A stretch of 64,000 nucleotides of DNA from Pseudobdellovibrionaceae bacterium (GTDB taxonomy: Bacteria > Bdellovibrionota > Bdellovibrionia > Bdellovibrionales > Bdellovibrionaceae): NCBI GenBank assembly GCA_039810425.1, contig JBDHWW010000006.1, forward strand, positions 1 to 64,000, in the 5' to 3' direction. The stretch's first letter is position 1. Every line of letters starts with the position of its first letter. Made by a program: the position numbers and the translations under genes. Below the pieces are notes generated by a model. It was given only the letters and a program-made list of their open reading frames with translations, made no database searches and was not told the DNA's origin. Below are positions 673 to 21,136 of this stretch, piece by piece.

Positions 673-801
673 AGAATCTGGTAGCGAAACCAGATTTCCC
701 ATCTTTGTAATTCACCCAAAATTTCGCCGAGCCACTGAACTGAGGCCCTTTGTCCTTTGGATAACTGCGAGCTTCTACGCGGCTTTGCTTTGAAAGGCTT
801 T

Positions 802-1155
802 ATGAAAAACGACACAGAATTTCCGAAGTACAAACTCGGAGAGCGCATCAAAGAACTCCGAGAAAAGAGGGGTCTGTCTCAAGAGGACTTGGCAAAAAAA
901 ACTGGATTAAGCCAGTCGACCGTTTCCCAAGTTGAGCGTGAAGAAAAAGACCCATCGCTTTCCACTCTTCAGAAAGTTTCCGAGGGCTTAGACGTTCATA
1001 TTGCGATGCTTTTTGCGAACGAGAATGTGCACGTCTTCGACTTACAGAAACTCAGGAGTAAGTACGACACCGTGGATAAGCTTTCACCGTATTTGTACAC
1101 GGCACTGGGCAAGATTGTTCGCTATGCGGCGGACATCGGATTTATCAAAGGATAG
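802..1155 (+). CDS. XRE-family HTH transcriptional regulator heading the CBASS operon
   Basis: LGERIKELREKRGLSQEDLAKKTGLSQSTVSQVEREEKDPSLSTLQKV is a classic HTH_3. ATG 802 preferred over 757. Ends 3 nt before the patatin start. Confidence 0.9.
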   Translation: MKNDTEFPKYKLGERIKELREKRGLSQEDLAKKTGLSQSTVSQVEREEKDPSLSTLQKVSEGLDVHIAMLFANENVHVFDLQKLRSKYDTVDKLSPYLYTALGKIVRYAADIGFIKG

Positions 1156-1158
1156 TAA

Positions 1159-2097
1159 ATGCAGAATGAAAATTTCAAAATTTTGAGCATCGACGGCGGC
1201 GGCATACGCGGGGTTTTCCCTGCACACATTCTCCAATGCGTCGAAAGTCGACTAGGAATTGATCCGACAACACATTTTAATATGCTCGCGGGCACCAGCA
1301 CCGGGGCAATCATTGCTGCCGCTCTTGCATGTAAGATCAAACCTGAAGTCATCGTAGCCCTGTATAAGGATAAGGGCGAACACATCTTTAAGAAAAAGTG
1401 CTCATGGTGGCCAAGCCTTGCGAAGCCAGGTTTTCATAGCCTCTACGACAGTGCCGGGTTGGCCGAGCTACTAAAAGAAATTTTCAAGGATACGAAGCTT
1501 GGCGACATTTCAATTCCTTTAATCTTGCCAGCGACAGACATTGGGCACGGTGGCGTTCACGTCTTCAAATCAAACTATTCGAGCAGCTTTACAAGGGACA
1601 ATCATGTTCTCGTCCGCGATGCCGTCCTTGCATCATGTAGTGCGCCGACATACTTCGATCCTGCGCGAGTGAATGAATACGCATTGGCAGATGGAGGCCT
1701 TTGGGCAAACAACCCTTCTCTAACGGCATTTATAGATGCCCAGCGCCGATTGAATATTGAGCGTAAAGACATAAAAATTCTGTCGCTCGGAACTGGTCAC
1801 TCTCGAACTTATTATTCCGTCAAGGTCGCACACCGGAAATGGGGCCTTCTCAACGGGTGGCGCGGGCGCGAGTTCATCGATTTTTTGATGTCGCTTCAGG
1901 GCCAATCAATCCACAACTATCTTGAACTGTCTCTAAGCAAGGACCAACTATGCCGTGTGAATTTTGAATCCGACTGTCCGTTACCACTAGATGATTGTTC
2001 TGCCATTGATGATTTAATTTCGCGAGCTGACAGGATGTTCACCCATGAGAGCGAAAAGTTGAAAACATTTTTAACAACCCATGAAGGGGGAATATGA
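1159..2097 (+). CDS. capV: patatin-like phospholipase, CBASS effector (CapV-like)
   Basis: DGGGIRG oxyanion motif, GTSTG nucleophile elbow and DGG catalytic Asp. Overlaps the CD-NTase start (ATGA). Confidence 0.88.
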   Translation: MQNENFKILSIDGGGIRGVFPAHILQCVESRLGIDPTTHFNMLAGTSTGAIIAAALACKIKPEVIVALYKDKGEHIFKKKCSWWPSLAKPGFHSLYDSAGLAELLKEIFKDTKLGDISIPLILPATDIGHGGVHVFKSNYSSSFTRDNHVLVRDAVLASCSAPTYFDPARVNEYALADGGLWANNPSLTAFIDAQRRLNIERKDIKILSLGTGHSRTYYSVKVAHRKWGLLNGWRGREFIDFLMSLQGQSIHNYLELSLSKDQLCRVNFESDCPLPLDDCSAIDDLISRADRMFTHESEKLKTFLTTHEGGI

Positions 2098-3290
2098 ATT
2101 CCAGAAACCGAAATATCGTTCTAGAGAAAATGCTTGAGCAACTAGAGTTGCCAATGACGGCCTATGAGAAAGCAAAAACTCGCTACGAAGACCTGGGAAA
2201 ATGGTTTTCGCGAGAAGAGTCTTTGATAAAGGACTTTGACCCGCACGTTTTCGTTCAAGGCTCGTTTAGATTGGGCACGGCAAATCGACCCGTCAACGAA
2301 GACGAACCATATGATCTTGATTTATCGTGCAAGCTAAAAGCCGGAATTTCGACAGCCACTCATACCCAGAAGGATTTGAAAGATCTTATCGGTAAAGAAT
2401 TGGAGGCATACCGACAACGTCGCGGTATCGAAAGCCCGCTGGTTCCAAAACACCGCTGTTGGCGTCTTGAATACCAAGATGAAATGAGTTTCCACATGGA
2501 TGTTGTCCCTGGAATTCCAGCGGAGACAAGAGGTCGATCGATCGCAAAATCAATGTTAAGCACGGGAGCTTCCGAGTATTTCGCTTCCGTTGCGACGCAA
2601 TCGACGATTTATATTACCGACGACCGTGATGAGTCTTTCGATGAACTCAGTGATGAATGGGGTATCAGCAACCCTGAAGGATACGCTAAATGGTTCGAGG
2701 ACGAAATTTATCGCACCCGCCGTTTTACACTTCTTGAAAAGGCCAAGGTTGACGAAGTTCCACTTTTCAAGCGCAAGACGCCGCTTCAAAGGGTTGTGCA
2801 ACTTCTGAAAAGGCATCGTGATCAGATGTTTAAAGATGATCCAAAGTCCATGCCTATTTCCATTGTAATTACGACTCTTGCGGCAATGGCTTACGAAGGA
2901 GAACAAGACCTCGAGACTGCGCTCACAAATATTTTGGCAAAGATGGGAAGCTTTGTTCGTCCGTCTGCCCCTAGAGTCCCGAATCCCGTTGATCCCAGTG
3001 AAGACTTCGCGGATCGATGGTCTATGCCCGAATGTCGTCACTTGAATCTCGAACAGAATTTTTGGGATTGGTTGGCGCAGGCAAAAACAGACTTTGAGGC
3101 CATTTGTAACTCTGAGAGAGTTGATTTTATCGGCGGCCAAGCCCGCAAGCGGTTTGCGCTAAACCTCAACGAAGCTGACTTGGCAAAGAGCCTTGGGATT
3201 GCACAGTCACCGGCAGCAACCCAGACTCCGAAGGTTCACGTTGTCAGCAGCGCTGCGCCTCCGTGGACAGCAGAATCAGATGAAACATGA
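2094..3290 (+). CDS. cGAS/DncV-like nucleotidyltransferase (CD-NTase), CBASS cyclase
   Basis: QGSFRLGT..RP...YDLDL (hGS..DxD), FHMDVVPG third Asp, SNPEGYAKWF, LQRVVQLLKRHRD, PISIVITTLAA, PNPVDPSEDFADRW. Confidence 0.93.
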   Translation: MNSRNRNIVLEKMLEQLELPMTAYEKAKTRYEDLGKWFSREESLIKDFDPHVFVQGSFRLGTANRPVNEDEPYDLDLSCKLKAGISTATHTQKDLKDLIGKELEAYRQRRGIESPLVPKHRCWRLEYQDEMSFHMDVVPGIPAETRGRSIAKSMLSTGASEYFASVATQSTIYITDDRDESFDELSDEWGISNPEGYAKWFEDEIYRTRRFTLLEKAKVDEVPLFKRKTPLQRVVQLLKRHRDQMFKDDPKSMPISIVITTLAAMAYEGEQDLETALTNILAKMGSFVRPSAPRVPNPVDPSEDFADRWSMPECRHLNLEQNFWDWLAQAKTDFEAICNSERVDFIGGQARKRFALNLNEADLAKSLGIAQSPAATQTPKVHVVSSAAPPWTAESDET

Positions 3291-3936
3291 ACTACCAGGT
3301 ACAAATGAATTCTTGCGCGACTATCCTGGAATGTCCCGCGCTCCGGCGGGACTAGGTGAGGTAGTTTTCAAAGGTGATTTTGATTTTACGGCCACGTACC
3401 GAGATGGGGTTGAGATCACTGAAAGTTATGCGCTGAAGATATCCGTGCCGCTCAGCTTTCCAAACGCCATTCCGAAAGTGTGGGAGCTAGGTGATAAAAT
3501 TCCAAATGATGGACGCCATCATTTAAACCCCAACAAGACACTTTGCTTGGGCGCTCCGATTCATGTCTTAAAGAAAGTGAAAGAAAGTCCTACAGTCGTT
3601 GGATTCGCAGAGAACTGTATTGTTCCCTTTCTCTATGCCGTTTCCAGAAAAATTAGGGATGGCAAAGACTTTGTTATGGGCGAACTAGAGCATGGCGAAC
3701 CGGGCGTCATTCAGGATTATGAACGCCTTTTTGGCATTACTGGACGCGATCAGGTGCTCAGAGTTCTTGAATCGCTAAGTTTGAAAAAGCGGATTGCAAA
3801 CAAGCGCCCCTGTCCCTGTAATTGTGGATTACGTCTTGGCAAGTGTTCCATCAGGCATACAGTGAACTACTACCGTAGACTTGCGCCCCGCTCATGGTTC
3901 CGCAAACACTTCCAAAAACCTGGCGCCGCGATGTAG
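3280..3936 (+). CDS. CBASS-associated E2 (UBC-fold)-like protein with C-terminal SEC-C-like Cys cluster
   Basis: ATG 3280 overlaps the CD-NTase end by 11 nt. Contains I.VP..FP..IPKV and HLNPNKTLCLG (E2 H-x-N...catalytic Cys), plus C-terminal CPCNCGLRLGKC. Confidence 0.75.
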   Translation: MKHELPGTNEFLRDYPGMSRAPAGLGEVVFKGDFDFTATYRDGVEITESYALKISVPLSFPNAIPKVWELGDKIPNDGRHHLNPNKTLCLGAPIHVLKKVKESPTVVGFAENCIVPFLYAVSRKIRDGKDFVMGELEHGEPGVIQDYERLFGITGRDQVLRVLESLSLKKRIANKRPCPCNCGLRLGKCSIRHTVNYYRRLAPRSWFRKHFQKPGAAM

Positions 3937-4029: not shown

Positions 4030-4242
4030 TTATGACTTCTGGCTTTCTGCCATGAATCGCCGAGTCTCGCTCAAGAAGAATTCTTTGCCCTCGTCATCGA
4101 GGTCATCCATGGTGACGACGCAGTCACCGACGATGTTGACCGTTTGGATGAAAGGCTCACCGTTTTCGACCGTCGCGTACACCTCACATTGAGTGTGCTC
4201 GTCGATGAAAGTGGTGAAACGGATTTCTTTTGGCTCGTCCAT
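4030..4242 (-). CDS. small acidic hypothetical protein
   Basis: 70-aa ORF, co-oriented and 53 nt downstream of the aspartic protease gene. Confidence 0.55.
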   Translation of the reverse strand: MDEPKEIRFTTFIDEHTQCEVYATVENGEPFIQTVNIVGDCVVTMDDLDDEGKEFFLSETRRFMAESQKS

Positions 4243-4295: not shown

Positions 4296-4805
4296 CTACT
4301 TCGGAGCAACGAGGGTCAGCCGGCAAGAATCTCCGCGGATATGCAAATCGAACAGAGATAACAACTCGGCTCCGATAAGAGCTTTTTCTCCCATCGTTCC
4401 AGAAACGGCTACTGTCGTCTGTATTGGAATGCCATTGACGACAAGAAGGACATTGTGAGTGGGGGCTTCGACAACGGAGCCATCGGCGTTAGTGACTCCA
4501 AACATTTGCACTAGTGTTGATTCATTAAGACCGATCTGATCCGCCACAAACGCAGGAATGACGACGGCAAAGTGGCAGCCAGTGTCGATCACGAATTCAA
4601 CTCCGCGAATGTCATTGCCATTCGATAAGTTACGCAAATCCGCTGTCAGAGTGTAGGTCTTTGACGTTTGAATCGGACACTGAAGCGTACTCTTGGATTG
4701 ACCGATAACTTCGGCCACGATCTTCTTTTGTTGGGGCGCACTTACTTTTGGTGTTGCTTGGGCCAAGTAGTTCGCTCGCATCGCTTTCATCATTGCTTTG
4801 TACAT
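4296..4805 (-). CDS. retropepsin-like (clan AA) aspartic protease
   Basis: FVIDTGC catalytic motif, NADG flap, ALIGAELL (hhG..hL) C-terminal motif. GGAGG RBS precedes ATG 4805. Confidence 0.8.
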   Translation of the reverse strand: MYKAMMKAMRANYLAQATPKVSAPQQKKIVAEVIGQSKSTLQCPIQTSKTYTLTADLRNLSNGNDIRGVEFVIDTGCHFAVVIPAFVADQIGLNESTLVQMFGVTNADGSVVEAPTHNVLLVVNGIPIQTTVAVSGTMGEKALIGAELLSLFDLHIRGDSCRLTLVAPK

Positions 4806-5150
4806 AGAACCTCCAGGGTAAAGATTGGCGACACGAAACGAGTCGCATTCGGACATCGAAATTTATCGAGAATCCCAAAAGCTCAAAATTTTTATCCCTT
4901 TCGGATCAACTCTGGGCATTTTTAAAAATGGGCGTTCCAAAAACGCCCGGCTTCAAATTTGTAACGGAGGTGGATAACGGGATCTCGAACACGGCCAGGA
5001 TCGGCATCAAAACAGAGTGCCACAAAATCTGCGACTGGCGCGGATTCTAACGTCGTTTTGCCCTCTGGACCGAGCGAGATCCTGAACACTGTGAACGGCT
5101 TTTCGCCCGAGACTCCTCAAGACGCTGGAAATGCCTCAAGCTATAGTAGC

Positions 5151-5480
5151 ATGCACCACAAACTCCATTTGGTGCTTCGAGATCTTTTGAAAAAGAACGG
5201 CCAGTCGGCCCGAAAGGCTGCGAAGGCCTGCGGGGTTCCTCTGTCGACCTTCAACGGATACTTGAAGCCCGACAGACATCAAATTGATCCGAATCATCTG
5301 CTGGCGATGGCCCGGCACTTTAACGTCAGTCTTGATTATCTTTTGAGTGGCCGAGAGCCGTCTCAGCGAATTGAAGGCCTTCCAACGAAACGTCTGTTCA
5401 GCCGTTGGGTCAAGCTCACCATTGAAGAGATCGCTGACGAAGGAGATGACTTAGATTTCCTGAAAGGTGGAAAGAAATGA
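5151..5480 (+). CDS. XRE/phage-repressor-like HTH regulator
   Basis: LRDLLKKNGQSARKAAKACGVPLSTFNGYL...LLAMARHFNVSLDYLLSG. Overlaps the next gene (ATGA). Confidence 0.85.
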   Translation: MHHKLHLVLRDLLKKNGQSARKAAKACGVPLSTFNGYLKPDRHQIDPNHLLAMARHFNVSLDYLLSGREPSQRIEGLPTKRLFSRWVKLTIEEIADEGDDLDFLKGGKK

Positions 5481-8407: not shown

Positions 8408-9028
8408 CTAAACGACCTGTTTTTGTTCTCGGGCCTGTTGCTTGGCAAGCTTCCTTCGACGACGACCTTCCCACTTGCGATTTTCGTATTCCACTTTACG
8501 TGCTGATGCTCGCGATTGTTTATACAACTTCCGCATCATCCAAATAGATAACGGAATCGCTGCCATTGACAGATAGACGTGATTTTTTAGAAAGAGACTG
8601 TCTACGGTGGCGTAGGCTGCTGCGAGCATCGAAAAGATCCACGTCCATCGTCGCATCTCGGACTTGATGAAAGATTTGCGCGATTGCGGGTACGTCTTCA
8701 TCTGACGGAACGCCCACCTCATATATATAAACGGAGACGCAAGTAACACGACAATAAGAATCAGTGGAAGAAGCGCAACTGCTCCGTTGAAAGAATGAGG
8801 TTTCGAATAAAATTGTCCGCGCTCGAAGGTAGAAAATAGTCTGTGACCGGACTGCTTTGCTTTCAGAACCTGCACCCGCAGGCGCTCTTCTTCTTTTGAT
8901 TTTCCCGGGAAAGGATTGTGCGATTTTCTCACGAGCACTAATCGGAAATTTTGAAGTGCAACTTCATGCCGATCGGTGTTCCGAAAACGTCCGTTTTTGA
9001 GACAGCAGTTTTTGAAAACTAGCGCCAT
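8408..9028 (-). CDS. small membrane protein (true start probably well downstream of 9028, near 8790)
   Basis: Three hydrophobic segments and a basic tail in the last ~125 aa. The 5' part of the ORF overlaps the res-like site and is probably non-coding. Confidence 0.5.
   Translation of the reverse strand: MALVFKNCCLKNGRFRNTDRHEVALQNFRLVLVRKSHNPFPGKSKEEERLRVQVLKAKQSGHRLFSTFERGQFYSKPHSFNGAVALLPLILIVVLLASPFIYMRWAFRQMKTYPQSRKSFIKSEMRRWTWIFSMLAAAYATVDSLFLKNHVYLSMAAIPLSIWMMRKLYKQSRASARKVEYENRKWEGRRRRKLAKQQAREQKQVV
8977..9004. promoter_or_regulatory. res-type serine recombinase crossover/binding site
   Basis: 28-bp imperfect palindrome TGTTCCGAAAACG-TC-CGTTTTTGAGACA (13+2+13) immediately downstream of the resolvase gene. 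Confidence 0.6.
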
Positions 9029-9645
9029 TGAAATCGTTGGGGTTTTTGCGGCGAATTTTCAGGGGTTTTCGGAACGGCCTGGAGTGCTCGCGAAATGGCC
9101 CCACGGCTGACGCCAAGCTGCTTTTGAATCGCCGTGTAGCTCAAGCCCTGCTGTCGCAGGTCTTGAATCTTCGCGTCGTCCCTGGTTTTGGGTCGGCCCA
9201 GTGTCTTGCCCTGGCGGCGGGCGTGCTCCAGGCCTAACATGGTGCGCTCGATCAAAAGACTCTTTTCGAACTCAGCCAATGAGCCGAGAATTTGTGCCAG
9301 TAATCGTCCGGCGGGTGTCGTGTAATCAATGTTATCTTTGGTAGCGACAAACTGAACGCTTAGGGCCTGCCATTCTTCAAGTGTTGTCACTAGATGTTTG
9401 AGGCTGCGAAATAGGCGGTCCATCTTTACCACGACCACCACATCTATTTTTCGCTCTCGCACTAGTTTTAGAAGTTCCTTTAAGCCTGGCCGAGCATCTG
9501 TACCGCCGCTGAAGCCGTGATCAACGATTTCGTGTGCAATAGTCCAGCCTCGTGCTTCACAGTATCGGCGTAACTCATGGACTTGAACTTCAGGGTTCTG
9601 GTTGTGGTGGGATGTAGAAACTCGGGAATATGTTGCGACTTTCAT
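9019..9645 (-). CDS. serine recombinase (resolvase/invertase family) with C-terminal HTH
   Basis: YSRVST catalytic Ser, SG...RPGL, KMDRLFRS, LAEFEKSLLIERT..GL..AR..G..LGRP, HTH GLSYTAIQKQLGVSRGAISR. Confidence 0.95.
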   Translation of the reverse strand: MKVATYSRVSTSHHNQNPEVQVHELRRYCEARGWTIAHEIVDHGFSGGTDARPGLKELLKLVRERKIDVVVVVKMDRLFRSLKHLVTTLEEWQALSVQFVATKDNIDYTTPAGRLLAQILGSLAEFEKSLLIERTMLGLEHARRQGKTLGRPKTRDDAKIQDLRQQGLSYTAIQKQLGVSRGAISRALQAVPKTPENSPQKPQRFQWR

Positions 9646-12966: not shown

Positions 12967-13052
12967 TTTTTCTGAGCATTTTTGTTTGAAACTGGTGATT
13001 ATTCGCGGCGGTCTCGGTGGGCGGGATCGCTGCACAAAACAAGGAGCAATTC

Positions 13053-14342
13053 ATGCGATGGGAGAAGCGAAAGGACAGGTACGGTAAGTCGTATTACAGC
13101 TTCTGTCATTGGGACCCGGTTTCTCGCCGGAACCTGCGCCTGAAGCGCTCCGAGATTCCAACGAACATTGTCACTGATGCTCAGGCCGACGAGTTCTGTC
13201 GACTGCGCGAAGCAGAGGACGAAGCTGCGAAGTACCGCATCGAACGTAAGCTCGCGTGGAACAAGAAGTTCTATGACTTCGAGAAGCTGCTGGAGATTTT
13301 TGAGGTGGCGTCGAAAGTTCGTGCCCCCAACTCGTGGCAGGCTCCGGTGTACTACCTGAAGCAGTACGCGCTCGACTTCTTCCTCAATCACAAGCAGTGC
13401 AACAACCTGAACAACTGGCCGCTGTTTTTTGAGGAATTTCGTGAGTGGCTGATGACCGTTCGCACGGGCAATCGCACGAAGGGTGACGGCCTCGCATTCA
13501 GTAGCCGCAACAGCGTAATCGGCGCCGTGAATCTATTTCTCGACGTGATGGCACGAAAGGGCAAGTGCGAGCAGGCTCCGAAGTGTCGGAAGTTTCCGCG
13601 GCACCTCGTGAACCGGCGCACCGCTGAGGACGTGATCTCCAACGAGGAAGCTAAGATCATCCACCAACGCCTCCTTGACCTCGATACGACTGGCATCGCC
13701 GCAGACTTCTTCCTCGTGCTTATGCACAGCGGTCTTCGTCTTGGTGAAGGTTTAGGAATTTCTCTAGCCGACTTTTCACCGGGTGTTCCAGAGGTTGCCC
13801 TGGTAAAGGGAGCAATCCAACGGCACGGCCTTCAATGCTTCGGGTTCATTGCTCTCGAGTCGCAGGTTGCAAGTGCGATCCACCCACGTAGCCAAGGCGG
13901 CAGAGTTTCGCGCAAGCCGCTCAAGGGGCGCAAACGCATCGACGCCAAAGGAGGCCGGACAATCCCGATCCTCGACAAGCAGGCCTTCAACGCTCTTGCG
14001 CGGCGGTTCAACGAGCAGACGGACTTGCTCGAGCGAAACAAGTATGGAGCAGCTAAGGGAGACTACTTGTTATTCGAAGGTCTCGAGAAGAATCGATTTT
14101 CACGTTTACTTCGTGAAGCCTACGAAGGAACGACGTTCAAACACAAGTCGCCCCACTGCGCACGGCACACATTCGCGACGAACCTAGCCGGCATCACTCA
14201 CGCAGACACTGGATTCTGCCGTCTGGTTCTCGGTCACAAAGACGAAGACACGACGCTGGGGTACGTCCACCTGTTCGAACAGATCAACCGCCAGGCCCGC
14301 GCCAAAGTGTTGGTGAAGTCGAAGATCGCGCTAGTCGAATAA
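13053..14342 (+). CDS. int: tyrosine recombinase / integrase
   Basis: AAGGAG RBS; HSGLRLGE (R), PHCARHTFAT (HxxR), LGHKDEDTTLGYVH (H, catalytic Y). Confidence 0.92.
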   Translation: MRWEKRKDRYGKSYYSFCHWDPVSRRNLRLKRSEIPTNIVTDAQADEFCRLREAEDEAAKYRIERKLAWNKKFYDFEKLLEIFEVASKVRAPNSWQAPVYYLKQYALDFFLNHKQCNNLNNWPLFFEEFREWLMTVRTGNRTKGDGLAFSSRNSVIGAVNLFLDVMARKGKCEQAPKCRKFPRHLVNRRTAEDVISNEEAKIIHQRLLDLDTTGIAADFFLVLMHSGLRLGEGLGISLADFSPGVPEVALVKGAIQRHGLQCFGFIALESQVASAIHPRSQGGRVSRKPLKGRKRIDAKGGRTIPILDKQAFNALARRFNEQTDLLERNKYGAAKGDYLLFEGLEKNRFSRLLREAYEGTTFKHKSPHCARHTFATNLAGITHADTGFCRLVLGHKDEDTTLGYVHLFEQINRQARAKVLVKSKIALVE

Positions 14343-16169: not shown

Positions 16170-16251
<82 letters not shown>

Positions 16252-17421: not shown

Positions 17422-18462
17422 TTATCTTTGGGAGTATGTTTGTGATTCACCTTTAGCGTTGATCTCAACAACCTTGTTCTTAGAAACCCGAATGACAGGA
17501 AGCTCTTCGCGCGCAACACCCTGTGCATTCATCTTTTCCACCTCAAAAGGCACGAGCTGTTTTACGCCTTTCTTGTCGGGATGAAGCTCATACTGATGCG
17601 CACAGTTCTTAGAGCAAGTATCTTGTTTGAATTTAATCTGCGAACACTCTTCGCAGATCAGCTCTTCGCTGTCGCAACGGGCGCAAGTAATTTTAATTTC
17701 GCTCGGCTGACCACAGTGTGGGCATAGACCGTATTTTGTACTCGGTTGCAGATTCTGATCCAAAGCCACGCGGTGGTCAAAGACAAAGCATTCGCCTTGA
17801 AACTGGTCGTTCGGTTGTTCTTTGATATAGTTTAAAATTCCACCTTCCAACTGGTAAACATTGTCATAGCCCTGTTTTTGCAATTCAAGAATGCCTTTTT
17901 CGCAACGGATTCCGCCAGTGCAGAAAATCAACATCTTCTTATCTTTAGGAATGCCCTGCGCTTCAATGTACTGAGGAAACTCCGTGAACTTTTCAATGTT
18001 AGGATTCAAAGCTCCTTGGAAAGTTCCGATTTTGTACTCATACCAATTACGGGTATCGATCATGACAAAGTCAGACTCCTCTTTTAAAACTTTGTTCCAC
18101 TCTTCAGGAGTGAGATGGTGGTTTTTACCTTCCGGCGGCATCATTTCAGGAATGCCAGTTGTCACAATCTCTTCTCGGATTTTAACTTTGAAACGGCGGA
18201 AGGGGGCTTTCTCGGAGGCCGAATCTTTAAAAAAAAGCTCAGGACTTTTGAAGTACTCACGAATAAACTGCTTCCAAGATTCAAAGCTCCCTGCCGTGCC
18301 GGCGGCGCACGTTGAGTTAAACCCTTCGTGACCAAGGATTACAAGACCTTTAATGTGGAGCTCTTCGGCCTTGGCCTCGAGATCTTTTTGGATTTGTTCG
18401 GGGTTTTCTAAAGCGAGGAATTTGTAAAACGCAGCGACGAAATAGCTTTGAGCTTCTGACAT
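17422..18462 (-). CDS. trhO: rhodanese-domain tRNA uridine(34) hydroxylase (TrhO/YceA, UPF0176)
   Basis: FYKF, EGFN, F.R.KVK.R.EIV, DTRNWYE..IG.F.GA, FCTGGIRCEK, LEGGIL.Y, CFVFD.RV. Confidence 0.88.
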   Translation of the reverse strand: MSEAQSYFVAAFYKFLALENPEQIQKDLEAKAEELHIKGLVILGHEGFNSTCAAGTAGSFESWKQFIREYFKSPELFFKDSASEKAPFRRFKVKIREEIVTTGIPEMMPPEGKNHHLTPEEWNKVLKEESDFVMIDTRNWYEYKIGTFQGALNPNIEKFTEFPQYIEAQGIPKDKKMLIFCTGGIRCEKGILELQKQGYDNVYQLEGGILNYIKEQPNDQFQGECFVFDHRVALDQNLQPSTKYGLCPHCGQPSEIKITCARCDSEELICEECSQIKFKQDTCSKNCAHQYELHPDKKGVKQLVPFEVEKMNAQGVAREELPVIRVSKNKVVEINAKGESQTYSQR

Positions 18463-19329: not shown

Positions 19330-19531
19330 AAAACCTCCTCGGGAATAGAAGATCACTCCTCATTAACCCGCCAACGAGAAGAGGAGGCTAGATGTATTTC
19401 ATCATATGAGGCCTAAGGTTTTATGCACCACAACAATCAGACGAAATGCCTCTCTCCAGGGTAATTCGCTTGTCCCAGTAATTCCGATCATTTATAACGA
19501 TTTTTTCGCTTCAGAATTTGTAAGGATAAAA

Positions 19532-21136
19532 ATGCTCGCAACTGCCGTTGTTCAAAAAGAAATCCAAAGACGTCGCACTTTTGCGATCATCTCGCATCCC
19601 GATGCCGGAAAGACCACCCTGACTGAAAAACTTCTCTATCATGGTGGCGTAATTCATGAAACGGGCGAGGTCAAAGGCAAGCAGGGCTCTAAGGCCGTGA
19701 CGTCCGACTGGATGGAGCTTGAACGGCAAAAAGGGATTTCGATCACGTCGTCGGTGATGACGTTTGACTACAATCAGCTGCGCGTAAACCTTCTCGATAC
19801 CCCAGGGCATAAAGACTTCTCCGAAGATACCTACCGCGTTTTGATGGCCGTAGAGTCGGCCTGCATGCTGATTGACGTTGCAAAGGGAGTCGAAGAGCGT
19901 ACCAAAAAACTTTACGAAGTTTGCCGTCTTCGCCACATTCCTATTTTTACTTTTGTGAATAAACTCGACCGCGAGGGTAAGGATCCTCTCACGCTCATTG
20001 ACGAGGTTGAAAAAACCCTCAACATGCAATGCTATCCCGTGACTTGGCCTCTCGGGATCGGTCAGCGCTTTCGTGGTATTTACAATCGTTTGACGAAAGA
20101 AATCTGGGTCTACGATCAGCGCCGCGAAGAAGTGGAAGACTACAAAATCATTCCCTTTGAGCCAGGCAAAGACGATGCGATCCTGTATGACTACCTCGAC
20201 AAAGAATCCGCAGACCAAGTGATCGGGGAGTTGGAACTTATTGAAGGAGCCCTTCCGCCGTTTGATGTCCAGGCTTTTCTCAGCGGAGAAATTTCGCCGG
20301 TGACGTTTGGTTCGGCAAAACAGAACTTCGGGGTGGATACATTCCTTAATTTCTTTACGCAGTATGCGCCGGGCCCACAGCCGCGCAAAACCAAAGACGA
20401 CAAAGTGATGGACCCGTGTGATGCGAACTTCACAGGCTTCGTCTTTAAAATCCAAGCCAATATGGATCGCCGTCACCGGGACCGCATTGCCTTTATCCGT
20501 ATTTGCTCGGGTAAATTTGATCGCGGCATGAAGGTTCAGCACTCGCGGCTTGAGCGCGAACTGCGCTTGTCCTATGCCAGCCAATTTGTTGCGGCTGATA
20601 AAGAAACCATCGAAGACGCCTACGCCGGCGATATCGTCGGCGTCGGTGATACCGGCAACTTCGCCATCGGCGACTGTGTTTCAGCCAGTGGCAAGGTGCG
20701 CTTTGAAGATATTCCTAAATTCGCCCCAGAGCTTTTCGGTAAGCTCAGTGTGCGCGATGCCTTGAAGCGCCAGAAAATGCAAGAGGCCTTGAAGCATTTG
20801 TCAGAAGAGGGCGCCATTCAGCTCTTCTACGATCCAGTGTTTGGTCCGCAGGACCCCATCGTGGGAGCGGTGGGCGAGCTGCAATTTGAAGTTTTGCTCC
20901 ATCGCTTGCAGGACGAATACAACCTTGAAGTGAAATTGAACCGCCTGCCTTTCACGGTGGCCCGTTGGCCGCGGGTGGATGGAAAGTCCGTGGATCAACT
21001 CAATGGTGGGTTTACAATCTATCGCGATATGATTGAGCAACCTGTGATTTTACTGAATCAAGAGTGGGATCTTAACTGGGCCCAACGTGAAAACCCTAAA
21101 GTCGAATTTGCCACCTCCATCAGCCGAGCTCGTTAG
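19532..21136 (+). CDS. prfC: peptide chain release factor 3
   Basis: RRTFAIISHPDAGKTTLTEK, SDWM..E...GISITSS, DTPGH.DFSEDTYR, NKLD, GAVGELQFEV. Confidence 0.97.
   Translation: MLATAVVQKEIQRRRTFAIISHPDAGKTTLTEKLLYHGGVIHETGEVKGKQGSKAVTSDWMELERQKGISITSSVMTFDYNQLRVNLLDTPGHKDFSEDTYRVLMAVESACMLIDVAKGVEERTKKLYEVCRLRHIPIFTFVNKLDREGKDPLTLIDEVEKTLNMQCYPVTWPLGIGQRFRGIYNRLTKEIWVYDQRREEVEDYKIIPFEPGKDDAILYDYLDKESADQVIGELELIEGALPPFDVQAFLSGEISPVTFGSAKQNFGVDTFLNFFTQYAPGPQPRKTKDDKVMDPCDANFTGFVFKIQANMDRRHRDRIAFIRICSGKFDRGMKVQHSRLERELRLSYASQFVAADKETIEDAYAGDIVGVGDTGNFAIGDCVSASGKVRFEDIPKFAPELFGKLSVRDALKRQKMQEALKHLSEEGAIQLFYDPVFGPQDPIVGAVGELQFEVLLHRLQDEYNLEVKLNRLPFTVARWPRVDGKSVDQLNGGFTIYRDMIEQPVILLNQEWDLNWAQRENPKVEFATSISRAR

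Follow-up and report, generated by a model that had tools for sequence, protein, structure and literature searches.

A long stand-alone E2 with a putative zinc knuckle, paired with a Pro-Trp-tailed cyclase in an E2-only CBASS operon of a Bdellovibrio-like genome

Nucleotides 757-3936 (plus strand) of a 64,000-nt stretch of Pseudobdellovibrionaceae DNA (GenBank assembly GCA_039810425.1, contig JBDHWW010000006.1, positions 1 to 64,000; hereafter the window, meaning the whole stretch analyzed) comprise an E2-only (type II-short) operon of CBASS (anti-phage signaling based on cyclic oligonucleotides), a defense system of a known kind. Its four tightly packed genes code for a helix-turn-helix (HTH) regulator, a patatin lipase, a cGAS/DncV-like nucleotidyltransferase (CD-NTase, the cyclase) and a lone E2 protein; the HTH gene is counted in because it lies 4 nt upstream of the lipase gene on the same strand. 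The name “type II (short)” reportedly goes back to Millman et al. 2020. Judged by sequence comparison, the last two proteins represent a large subclass that was not found described, in which a long E2 with a SEC-C-like knuckle is paired with a cyclase ending in [K/R]PW-xx, and which departs from the published hallmark of E2-CBASS, a C-terminal glycine of the cyclase. By analogy with the cyclase-E2 pair of Serratia (SmCdnG and SmE2), it is on balance probable that the lone E2 recognizes the Pro-Trp tail, likely cuts off the residues beyond it and holds the cyclase covalently, priming cyclase activity. The features on which this reading draws are the following.

1159-2097, plus strand: patatin-like phospholipase effector (CapV-like), 312 aa; Pfam Patatin 9.9e-34, PADLOC Effector/Phospholipase 5.4e-94.
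2094-3290, plus strand: clade-G CD-NTase, 398 aa; PADLOC cyclase model PDLC00780 5.7e-117, PDB entry 9WOO 1.9e-116.
3258-3287, plus strand: C-terminal tail of the cyclase, P389-P390-W391 (nt 3258-3266) and the 7-residue TAESDET (nt 3267-3287), corresponding to the family [K/R]PW motif.
3280-3936, plus strand: stand-alone long-class E2, 218 aa; PADLOC E2 model PDLC00859 3.1e-79 over residues 6-213.
3520-3546, plus strand: stretch around the E2 active site, H81-L-N83-P-N-K-T-L-C89; its HPN-like motif lies 8 residues N-terminal of the predicted catalytic Cys.
3691-3693, plus strand: H138, the second invariant His of the E2 (E-L-x-H-G), which may correspond to the second catalytic His of SmE2.
3796-3846, plus strand: A173-N-K175, then the SEC-C-like cluster C178-P-C180-N-C182-G-L-R-L-G-K-C189 (Cys cluster at nt 3811-3846).

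An earlier reading, made from the sequence alone and without database searches (the sequence-only reading), had described three overlapping genes of an E2-only CBASS, and this description stands, as do the motifs and coordinates given with it: all three are on the plus strand, the patatin and CD-NTase genes overlap by 4 nt, the E2 ATG precedes the cyclase stop with an overlap of 11 nt, and PADLOC recognizes each of the three enzymes as a CBASS part. Homologues of the window E2 begin at the same Met. An effector gene adjoins the cyclase gene, as in other E2-CBASS operons, since the patatin gene overlaps the cyclase start; activation of the encoded lipase by the cyclase product would follow the CBASS scheme. 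The absence of an E1 or JAB gene after the E2 gene, also claimed at that time, is borne out, as the downstream neighbors are convergent, lie on the opposite strand and are unrelated to E1 or JAB. In the source genome (3.54 Mb, 99.88% complete) there is no Prok-JAB match at all, and the sole strong ThiF match is located on a contig (C42) other than that of the operon. A scan for promoters and terminators gave counts no higher than those in shuffled controls.

The catalytic residues of the cyclase, G56-S57, D74-x-D76 and D136, are present in columns that are invariant across an alignment of 48 sequences, and its C-terminus reads ...SSAAPPWTAESDET. The end is not a glycine (PPWTAESDET), just as had been read from the translation, and in the same alignment P390 and W391 are conserved in at least 90% of the sequences. 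In the 120 best database homologues, PW (115), PH (3) or SW (2) is followed by 2-9 variable residues with no conserved Gly; 156 distinct tails yield the consensus [P/S/A]-[A/P]-[K/R]-P-W, with P present in 149 and W in 153, and the position following W (+1) is occupied by R (37), E (28), G (21), K (18), S (11), C (10) and other residues. The conserved Gly at or beside the C-terminus that serves as the attachment residue in SmCdnG is absent from the window tail and is not conserved in the family. The shortest tails never have fewer than 2 residues beyond the aromatic residue, be it in genome loci (the true tail of L058 is PW-SSWG), database homologues or distant long-E2 loci, and a length of 2 is the commonest (26/69 genome loci, 64/120 database homologues). 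Taken from these alignments, [K/R]PW with at least 2 following residues is a conserved motif of the whole cyclase subfamily and not an oddity of the window gene. The acidic character of the extension, to which the sequence-only reading had drawn attention, holds for the window gene and its four nearest relatives; elsewhere the motif is followed by EW, KW, RSEK and the like.

The Serratia system (8HSB, 8YJY, 9KKB) is likewise E2-only, with a clade-G cyclase gene directly followed by the E2 gene. The UBC fold, predicted for the window E2, is shared with SmE2, and in both proteins a His precedes the Cys in an H-L-x-P...L-C-L context, the site reading H-L-Y-P...L-C-L-F in SmE2 and H-L-N-P...L-C-L-G in the window E2. 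According to the available parts of the respective publications, SmE2 removes the cyclase residue that follows G406, and G406 is linked first to C101 as a thioester and then to K159 as an isopeptide (Yan et al., 10.1101/2022.05.25.493364); the reaction requires H87 and H152, and poly-cGASylation activates the synthesis of 3'2'-cGAMP (10.1101/2022.05.25.493364; PMC12948482), the product of SmCdnG (Yan et al., 10.1101/2022.05.25.493364). The same portions report that the two histidines are conserved specifically in the E2 proteins of E2-CBASS and that E2-only systems make up 616 of ~5,000 CBASS operons (Yan et al., 10.1101/2022.05.25.493364), that a C-terminal Gly is highly conserved in E2-associated CD-NTases (Yan et al., 10.1101/2022.05.25.493364; Xiao et al., mLife 2026, PMC12948482), and that these cyclases mostly belong to clade G (Xiao et al., PMC12948482). 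The window operon differs from this system in several respects: SmCdnG ends in Y-G-E with an essential Gly, whereas the window cyclase ends in P-P-W-TAESDET; SmE2 has 162 aa and no zinc knuckle, whereas the window E2 has 218 aa and a basic SEC-C-like module; the His-to-Cys spacing of the active site is 14 in SmE2 and 8 in the window E2; the two proteins match different PADLOC E2 models; and the effector of the Serratia operon is 2TM-SAVED (as given in a related preprint), compared with patatin here. SmCdnG (8HSB) matches the window cyclase at 5.3e-26 in a search of the PDB, in which the closest solved cyclase is VcCdnG of Vibrio cholerae 365-96 (9WOO, residues 3-392). The VcCdnG tail, ...SSDPKPWF.., aligns with ...SSAAPPWT of the window cyclase; the two share subfamily and tail type. 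VcCdnG belongs to clade G, its product is 3'2'-cGAMP, and the effector that it activates is the HNH-SAVED protein Cap5, in contrast to the patatin of the window (J Biol Chem 2025, PMC12804361, available part); the available text of that paper mentions neither an E2 nor the tail, with “Cap2” occurring 0 times and “ubiquitin” only in connection with the ULP1 tag. In canonical type II CBASS (Cap2, an E1-E2 protein, and Cap3, a JAB peptidase; Ledvina et al., 10.1101/2022.03.31.486616), the cyclase C-terminus is also the substrate of the transferase, but the window has neither an adenylating E1 domain nor a JAB peptidase, and the E2 domain of Cap2 is described in the accessible text as lacking the HPN-like motif (Ledvina et al., 10.1101/2022.03.31.486616), which the window E2 possesses. 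Cyclases that are 43-48% identical to the window cyclase but stand beside Cap2/Cap3 end in ...KPAGFA or ...GGGRLG. A literature search found no paper on a Pro-Trp cyclase tail or on a CBASS E2 bearing SEC-C; a mention of SEC-C in PMC11381338 concerns an unrelated lactococcal protein, and the preprint 10.1101/2025.03.04.641389, on a CBASS exonuclease, has no bearing on the tail.

The type of the tail goes together with the type of the partner protein. A scan of genome contigs for the E2 gave 79 loci, 77 with an E2 open reading frame (ORF) and 71 with a cyclase ending at the E2 start; [P/S/Q]W stands near the end in 69 of these 71 cyclases adjoining a long E2, the two exceptions being a truncated cyclase (L019) and one that ends in ...PSHAKIIR (L054). 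From a scan of metagenome contigs for the cyclase, the best 80 loci were considered. In 60 of them the profile reaches the C-terminus of a complete cyclase, and all 60 carry the motif; a long E2 is present in 51/51 motif-bearing loci with at least 700 nt downstream. Among the other 20 loci, one runs off the contig and in 19 the profile alignment ends before the C-terminus: one of these is cut by the contig end (L154), another has PW-ALGRI and a long E2 (L169), and 17 have other tails, with a long E2 in 0/17. The tails lacking the motif are distributed as follows.

...KPAGFA and variants, 12 metagenome loci: Cap2-like ORF in 11; the remaining locus (L131) has only 60 nt downstream.
...GGGRLG, 2 metagenome loci: Cap2-like and JAB-like ORFs in L127, JAB-like ORF only in L145.
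...HKFYG or ...HKFYA, 3 metagenome loci: an ORF of 150-159 aa in 3/3.

Pfam identifies ThiF and Prok-JAB in 3/3 loci tested (L123, L127, L149), and the 150-159-aa ORF matches SmE2 in the PDB (8HSB_B, 3.1e-6) as well as the short-E2 PADLOC models PDLC00862 and PDLC00876; no match to Cap2, JAB or a short E2 was obtained in any motif-bearing locus. More distant classes of long E2 in the phylum adjoin the tails DPW-SC, RPH-AKV, KPY-GKGN and KPW-CRW, and tails of the Cap2 and short-E2 types can stop exactly at G or A. Since the tail switches with the partner among cyclases of similar divergence, this correlation is the strongest available evidence that the E2 acts on the tail, and the cyclase tail is very probably the substrate of the long E2. 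The resulting three-way rule offers a prediction of how a CD-NTase would be primed: GFA or RLG for Cap2/Cap3, FYG or FYA for a short E2 and [K/R]PW-xx for a long E2. As a side observation, three metagenomic relatives of the Cap2/Cap3 type (L131, L135, L143) end not in ...KPAGFA but in ...KPAGFA-YRF(RI/RV), probably a naturally occurring extension that Cap3 trims.

It could be argued that the long E2 modifies something other than the cyclase, namely the lipase or a phage or host protein, and that the tail correlation merely records the shared descent of the two genes. Effectors of the cyclase-E2 pair do differ even between close relatives, patatin, nuclease-SAVED and 2TM-SAVED all being found: patatin is directly upstream of the cyclase in 12/71 loci, and among the matches listed, at least 39 related loci have a nuclease-SAVED effector and a few have 2TM-SAVED. 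Such free swapping marks the pair as an evolutionary unit whatever the role of the E2, which is not direct evidence for another target, and it argues against the effector as the E2 substrate. Given further that Cap2 and SmE2, the two CBASS conjugation systems that have been studied, both act on the C-terminus of the cyclase, and that tail type switches exactly with partner type at similar cyclase divergence, a target other than the cyclase is very improbable.

The third protein is, according to structure prediction, a UBC-fold E2 with an HxN...C site, in agreement with the E2-type site recognized in the sequence-only reading, for which a different predicted fold would have been fatal. An AlphaFold2 (AF2) model built on 45 homologues has a mean pLDDT of 94.4 and a pTM of 0.89. 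Its top Foldseek matches are all ubiquitin-conjugating (UBC) domains or ubiquitin E2 variants (UEV), albeit with marginal E-values (UFC1 2.5e-3, probability 1.0), and VIA-align scores range from Z 8.6 to 9.9: 9.9 for a TSG101 UEV, 8.7 for UFC1 and 8.6 for SmE2 (8YJY_B, with 129 aligned residues across model residues 3-216), a comparison that probes mainly E2 residues 1-134 and in which Z differences below 1 are ties. The E2 also matches six further PADLOC models of CBASS E2 or E1-E2 proteins, including the E1-E2 model PDLC00833 at 7.6e-22, and has zero family matches in Pfam and NCBIfam. The stretch H81-L-N-P-N-K-T-L-C89-L-G is encoded by nt 3520-3552. In the 45 homologues (34-72% identity), H81, C89, G91, H138, K175, C178, C180, C189 and R199 are invariant, N83 is mostly conserved and C182 is conserved in at least 90%; with the family profile, H81...C89 lines up with the H...C active site in UBE2W and other E2 proteins at E ~0.01. 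Exactly two His, H81 and H138, are invariant in the family, and H138 may correspond to H152 of SmE2.

The fold comparison brings in the main rival of a covalent mechanism, in which the E2 would hold the Pro-Trp tail without a covalent bond, much like a UEV domain, and serve for docking, inhibition or sensing, with its Cys acting on another substrate or not at all. The top structural matches are indeed TSG101 UEV domains (Z 9.5-9.9), several with PTAP-type peptides, the tail's conserved part, [A/P][K/R]PW, is rich in proline, and a tail lacking Gly fits known thioester chemistry poorly. The Z gaps among UEV, UFC1 and SmE2, however, stay within ~1 unit and count as ties, and UEV domains have no catalytic Cys, while H81, C89 and H138 are invariant in the 45 diverged homologues of the window E2, which argues for catalysis and against a UEV-like role. 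The non-covalent alternative is accordingly judged improbable. The matching TSG101 UEV structures are 3OBS, 3OBU and 4EJE, and the proline-rich parallel with the tail may be a coincidence.

The C-terminal module of the E2 (residues 165-218) has 14 K/R and zero D/E and contains R-I-A-N-K175-x-x-C-P-C-x-C-G-x-R-L-G-x-C. The SEC-C-like Cys tail that had been suspected here is weakly supported as a putative zinc knuckle by several sequence comparisons. The spacing C180-x8-C189 is that of the SecA zinc knuckle (SEC-C, PF02810; C-x-C-x8-C), also in a K/R-rich context; the E2 family profile weakly matches SecA zinc peptides (1OZB_I E 0.22, 1TM6 E 0.66; range 0.22-0.94); and distant long E2 proteins of the same phylum have the canonical CPCGxxxxxxxCH, e.g., CPCGRGKALRECH and CYCGSGRKIKRCH. 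Two plasmid homologues are entered in RefSeq as “SEC-C metal-binding domain-containing protein”, the others as “hypothetical protein”. In contrast to SEC-C, the window subfamily misses the final His/Cys beside the last Cys, C182 replaces the Ser of C-P-C-G-S-G, and the Pfam SEC-C model does not match the window E2 even at E 10. The role of the cluster in sensing or target recognition, suggested in the sequence-only reading, is pure speculation. At E <=1e-3, the long-E2 family comprises 2,297 representatives of clusters at 50% identity, of which 390 reach E <=1e-30. Of the best 150, nearly all are stand-alone proteins of ~180-300 aa; cyclase-E2 fusions of the long class were found neither among these nor among proteins of 383-2000 aa, the latter being weak evidence. 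On the side of the short class, Sm-type E2 proteins (L141:4212-4661, L157:4187-4663) match positions 416-542 of the 542-position PADLOC “Cyclase” model PDLC00816, from which it follows that this model was built from short-class cyclase-E2 fusions.

Combining these elements, the following course of events can be proposed. Upon infection, 3'2'-cGAMP would be the product of the clade-G cyclase, as it is of VcCdnG and SmCdnG, and this nucleotide would activate the patatin lipase, leading to degradation of the membrane and death of the infected cell. The Pro-Trp tail would be the docking site of the E2, and Cys89, assisted by His81 and His138, would attack the peptide bond at or just after Trp391, by analogy with SmE2; a thioester would form, the extension would be released, and the cyclase would be passed to a lysine, which might be the invariant Lys175 or a lysine of another cyclase molecule. 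Neither ATP nor an E1 would be needed, because the cleaved peptide bond would supply the energy, a proposal that also fits the rule of at least 2 residues after W. The basic SEC-C-like zinc knuckle would serve as a binding module. Trp391 is preferred as the acyl residue because it is conserved, and the invariance of H81, C89, H138 and K175 in the 45 homologues is counted in favor of this scheme. Tail trimming and E1-free conjugation by the window E2, as foreseen in the sequence-only reading, are plausible by analogy, although the idea itself is not new, having been published for SmE2.

A number of observations weigh against this scheme. The attachment residue of SmCdnG is a Gly, and the substitutions G406V and G406L abolished the link, according to the available text of Yan et al. 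(10.1101/2022.05.25.493364), so that a bulky Trp391, or Thr392, at the scissile position departs from the sole studied precedent; as the residue after W is not conserved, neither candidate site resembles the C-terminus of a classical ubiquitin-like protein (Ubl). The E2 sequence does not match SmE2 in a phmmer search of the PDB, which returned an irrelevant uS15 alone at E 0.11. In the AF2 model of the cyclase alone (mean pLDDT 88.5), helices 343-354 and 360-366 are followed by a low-confidence coil at 367-398, the tail being predicted as flexible, and the docking motif of SmCdnG, a C-terminal helix plus a beta-sheet of three strands, is not seen, although such a sheet might form only on binding. 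The pairing counts come from related sequences and not from independent events, and may partly reflect shared ancestry; finally, covariation between tail positions and E2 columns, analyzed in 67 pairs, gave no interpretable signal and is confounded by relatedness.

Within the same covalent mechanism, attachment could alternatively take place at the residue following the Trp, with Trp391 acting as a docking anchor only. T392 is the positional analogue of Serratia G406, and this arrangement would copy the Tyr405-Gly406|Glu407 end of SmCdnG, in which an aromatic residue, the attachment residue and one leaving residue follow each other (Y405-G406-E407); cyclases adjoining short Sm-type E2 proteins end in ...KFYG or ...KFYA, and the commonest length after W, two residues, reproduces the Y-G-E geometry. 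Residues at +1, however, vary widely and most of them are bulky or charged, whereas G406V and G406L killed the Serratia link, and no examined tail stops at +1, unlike the FYG and FYA tails. Attachment at Thr392 is thus rated unlikely, though a real possibility. Returning to Trp391 as the attachment site, a bolder and rather doubtful version of the proposal holds that the long SEC-C-bearing E2 would carry out an E1-free and ATP-free transpeptidation in which the Trp391 carbonyl passes to Cys89 and then to a lysine, which would make it the first Ubl-like conjugation without a C-terminal Gly or Ala, with the zinc knuckle reading a trigger such as phage nucleic acid, the membrane or an acidic phage protein.

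At present, the mechanism of E2-CBASS rests on one model, Serratia SmE2, and is keyed to the conserved C-terminal glycine, while the partner cyclases of this second large E2 class, VcCdnG among them, carry a Pro-Trp motif instead of that glycine. If the long E2 still conjugates such cyclases, ubiquitin-like transfer would embrace a wider chemistry than has been assumed; otherwise, E2-only CBASS would have at least two regulatory logics.

The lipase passes the NCBIfam equivalog model for CBASS cGAMP-activated phospholipases (9.2e-71, 238.7 bits against a cut-off of 200), and has the motifs GGGIRG (residues 13-18), GTSTG (45-49, with the nucleophile Ser47) and DGG (178-180). The GGGxRG, GxSxG and DGG motifs and the match to the CBASS lipase model are shared with CapV of the V. 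cholerae DncV operon. The ligand of CapV is 3'3'-cGAMP, whereas the nucleotide activating the window lipase would be 3'2'-cGAMP. The gene upstream of the lipase is the remaining member of the operon.

757-1155, plus strand: XRE-type HTH regulator gene; Pfam HTH_3 1.2e-19, PADLOC HTH_VI 1.3e-18 and capH 2.2e-13.

The ORF opens at TTG 757, with ATG 802 as the likelier start, and the protein would repress the operon. Its match to the PADLOC capH model is a likeness to the CapH/CapP control module; a genuine CapH/CapP pair was rejected, since the window has no CapP: no such metallopeptidase was found among the window ORFs scanned, in a contig that starts 756 nt upstream of the HTH gene. Among the matches listed for related loci, capP was seen in L052 alone. 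The nearest Bdellovibrionota loci (L001:3344-3688 and L006-L008:3308-3652, minus strand) have a divergent gene for a 114-aa HTH protein upstream of the patatin gene; the window HTH protein is related to those of L001 and L006-L008 (E 2e-8 to 1e-7), and its gene is co-directional in the window.

The operon, ~757 nt from the contig end, lies on a mobile island. The first 14 kb are shared with a second HTH gene (5058-5480) and several ORFs without a Pfam family, along with a serine recombinase/resolvase (9019-9645, minus strand) and a tyrosine integrase (13017-14342, plus strand); a tRNA-Met gene is located at 16175-16251 (minus strand), and housekeeping genes lie beyond, such as those for a rhodanese-family protein (17422-18462) and RF3 (19406-21136). 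The window cyclase clusters with cyclases from Halobacteriovoraceae, Bacteriovoracaceae and Oligoflexia metagenome-assembled genomes (MAGs), all patatin-linked. Within the phylum, 12 of 401 genomes are matched by the long-E2 profile at E <=1e-10 and 5 below 1e-80, the source genome being included in both; in the same genus the profile matches 0/2 genomes. The predatory host assumed in the sequence-only reading is plausible, as the nearest loci come from Bdellovibrionota MAGs; predation adds little interest, because the distribution is sporadic, the island is mobile and the effectors are swapped. Taken by itself, the window represents ordinary biology: an abortive-infection system that a Bdellovibrio-like genome acquired horizontally and carries on a mobile island.

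Several further observations concern the neighborhoods. Convergent to the CBASS operon are a gene for a clan-AA (retropepsin-like) aspartic protease (4296-4856, minus strand; Pfam gag-asp_proteas 1.9e-6, NCBIfam TIGR03698 2.9e-10, under the cut-off) and, following it, a 70-aa acidic ORF (4030-4242, minus strand). The 79 related loci contain no homologue of either, for which reason the two were rejected as stand-ins for Cap3, and both are probably unrelated to CBASS. In many long-E2 operons, a conserved protein of ~77 aa matching the PADLOC candidate family PDC-S16 (E 1e-30 to 1e-37) is encoded directly upstream of the effector (L002:3616-3849, L010:1214-1447, L013:2807-3049, L018:3374-3607, L019:2875-3108, L020:3599-3832, L021:3594-3830, L022:3593-3835, L038:1477-1695); the window lacks it and has the HTH gene in that position. 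In nine loci (L003, L004, L005, L009, L010, L012, L015, L034, L037), type I restriction-modification genes enclose the whole CBASS operon, with, on the upstream side, an hsdS-like specificity subunit and/or, adjoining the operon, an HsdR-like enzyme of ~1,070 aa (991 aa in L037), which suggests a recurrent insertion slot or a defense-island cassette. Two of these loci contain a second CBASS module directly upstream of the operon for nuclease-SAVED, the PW cyclase and the E2 (L003:1129-3610, L004:1117-3622), consisting of a patatin and a cyclase of 517-567 aa (PADLOC PDLC00770), so that two CBASS systems are stacked there.

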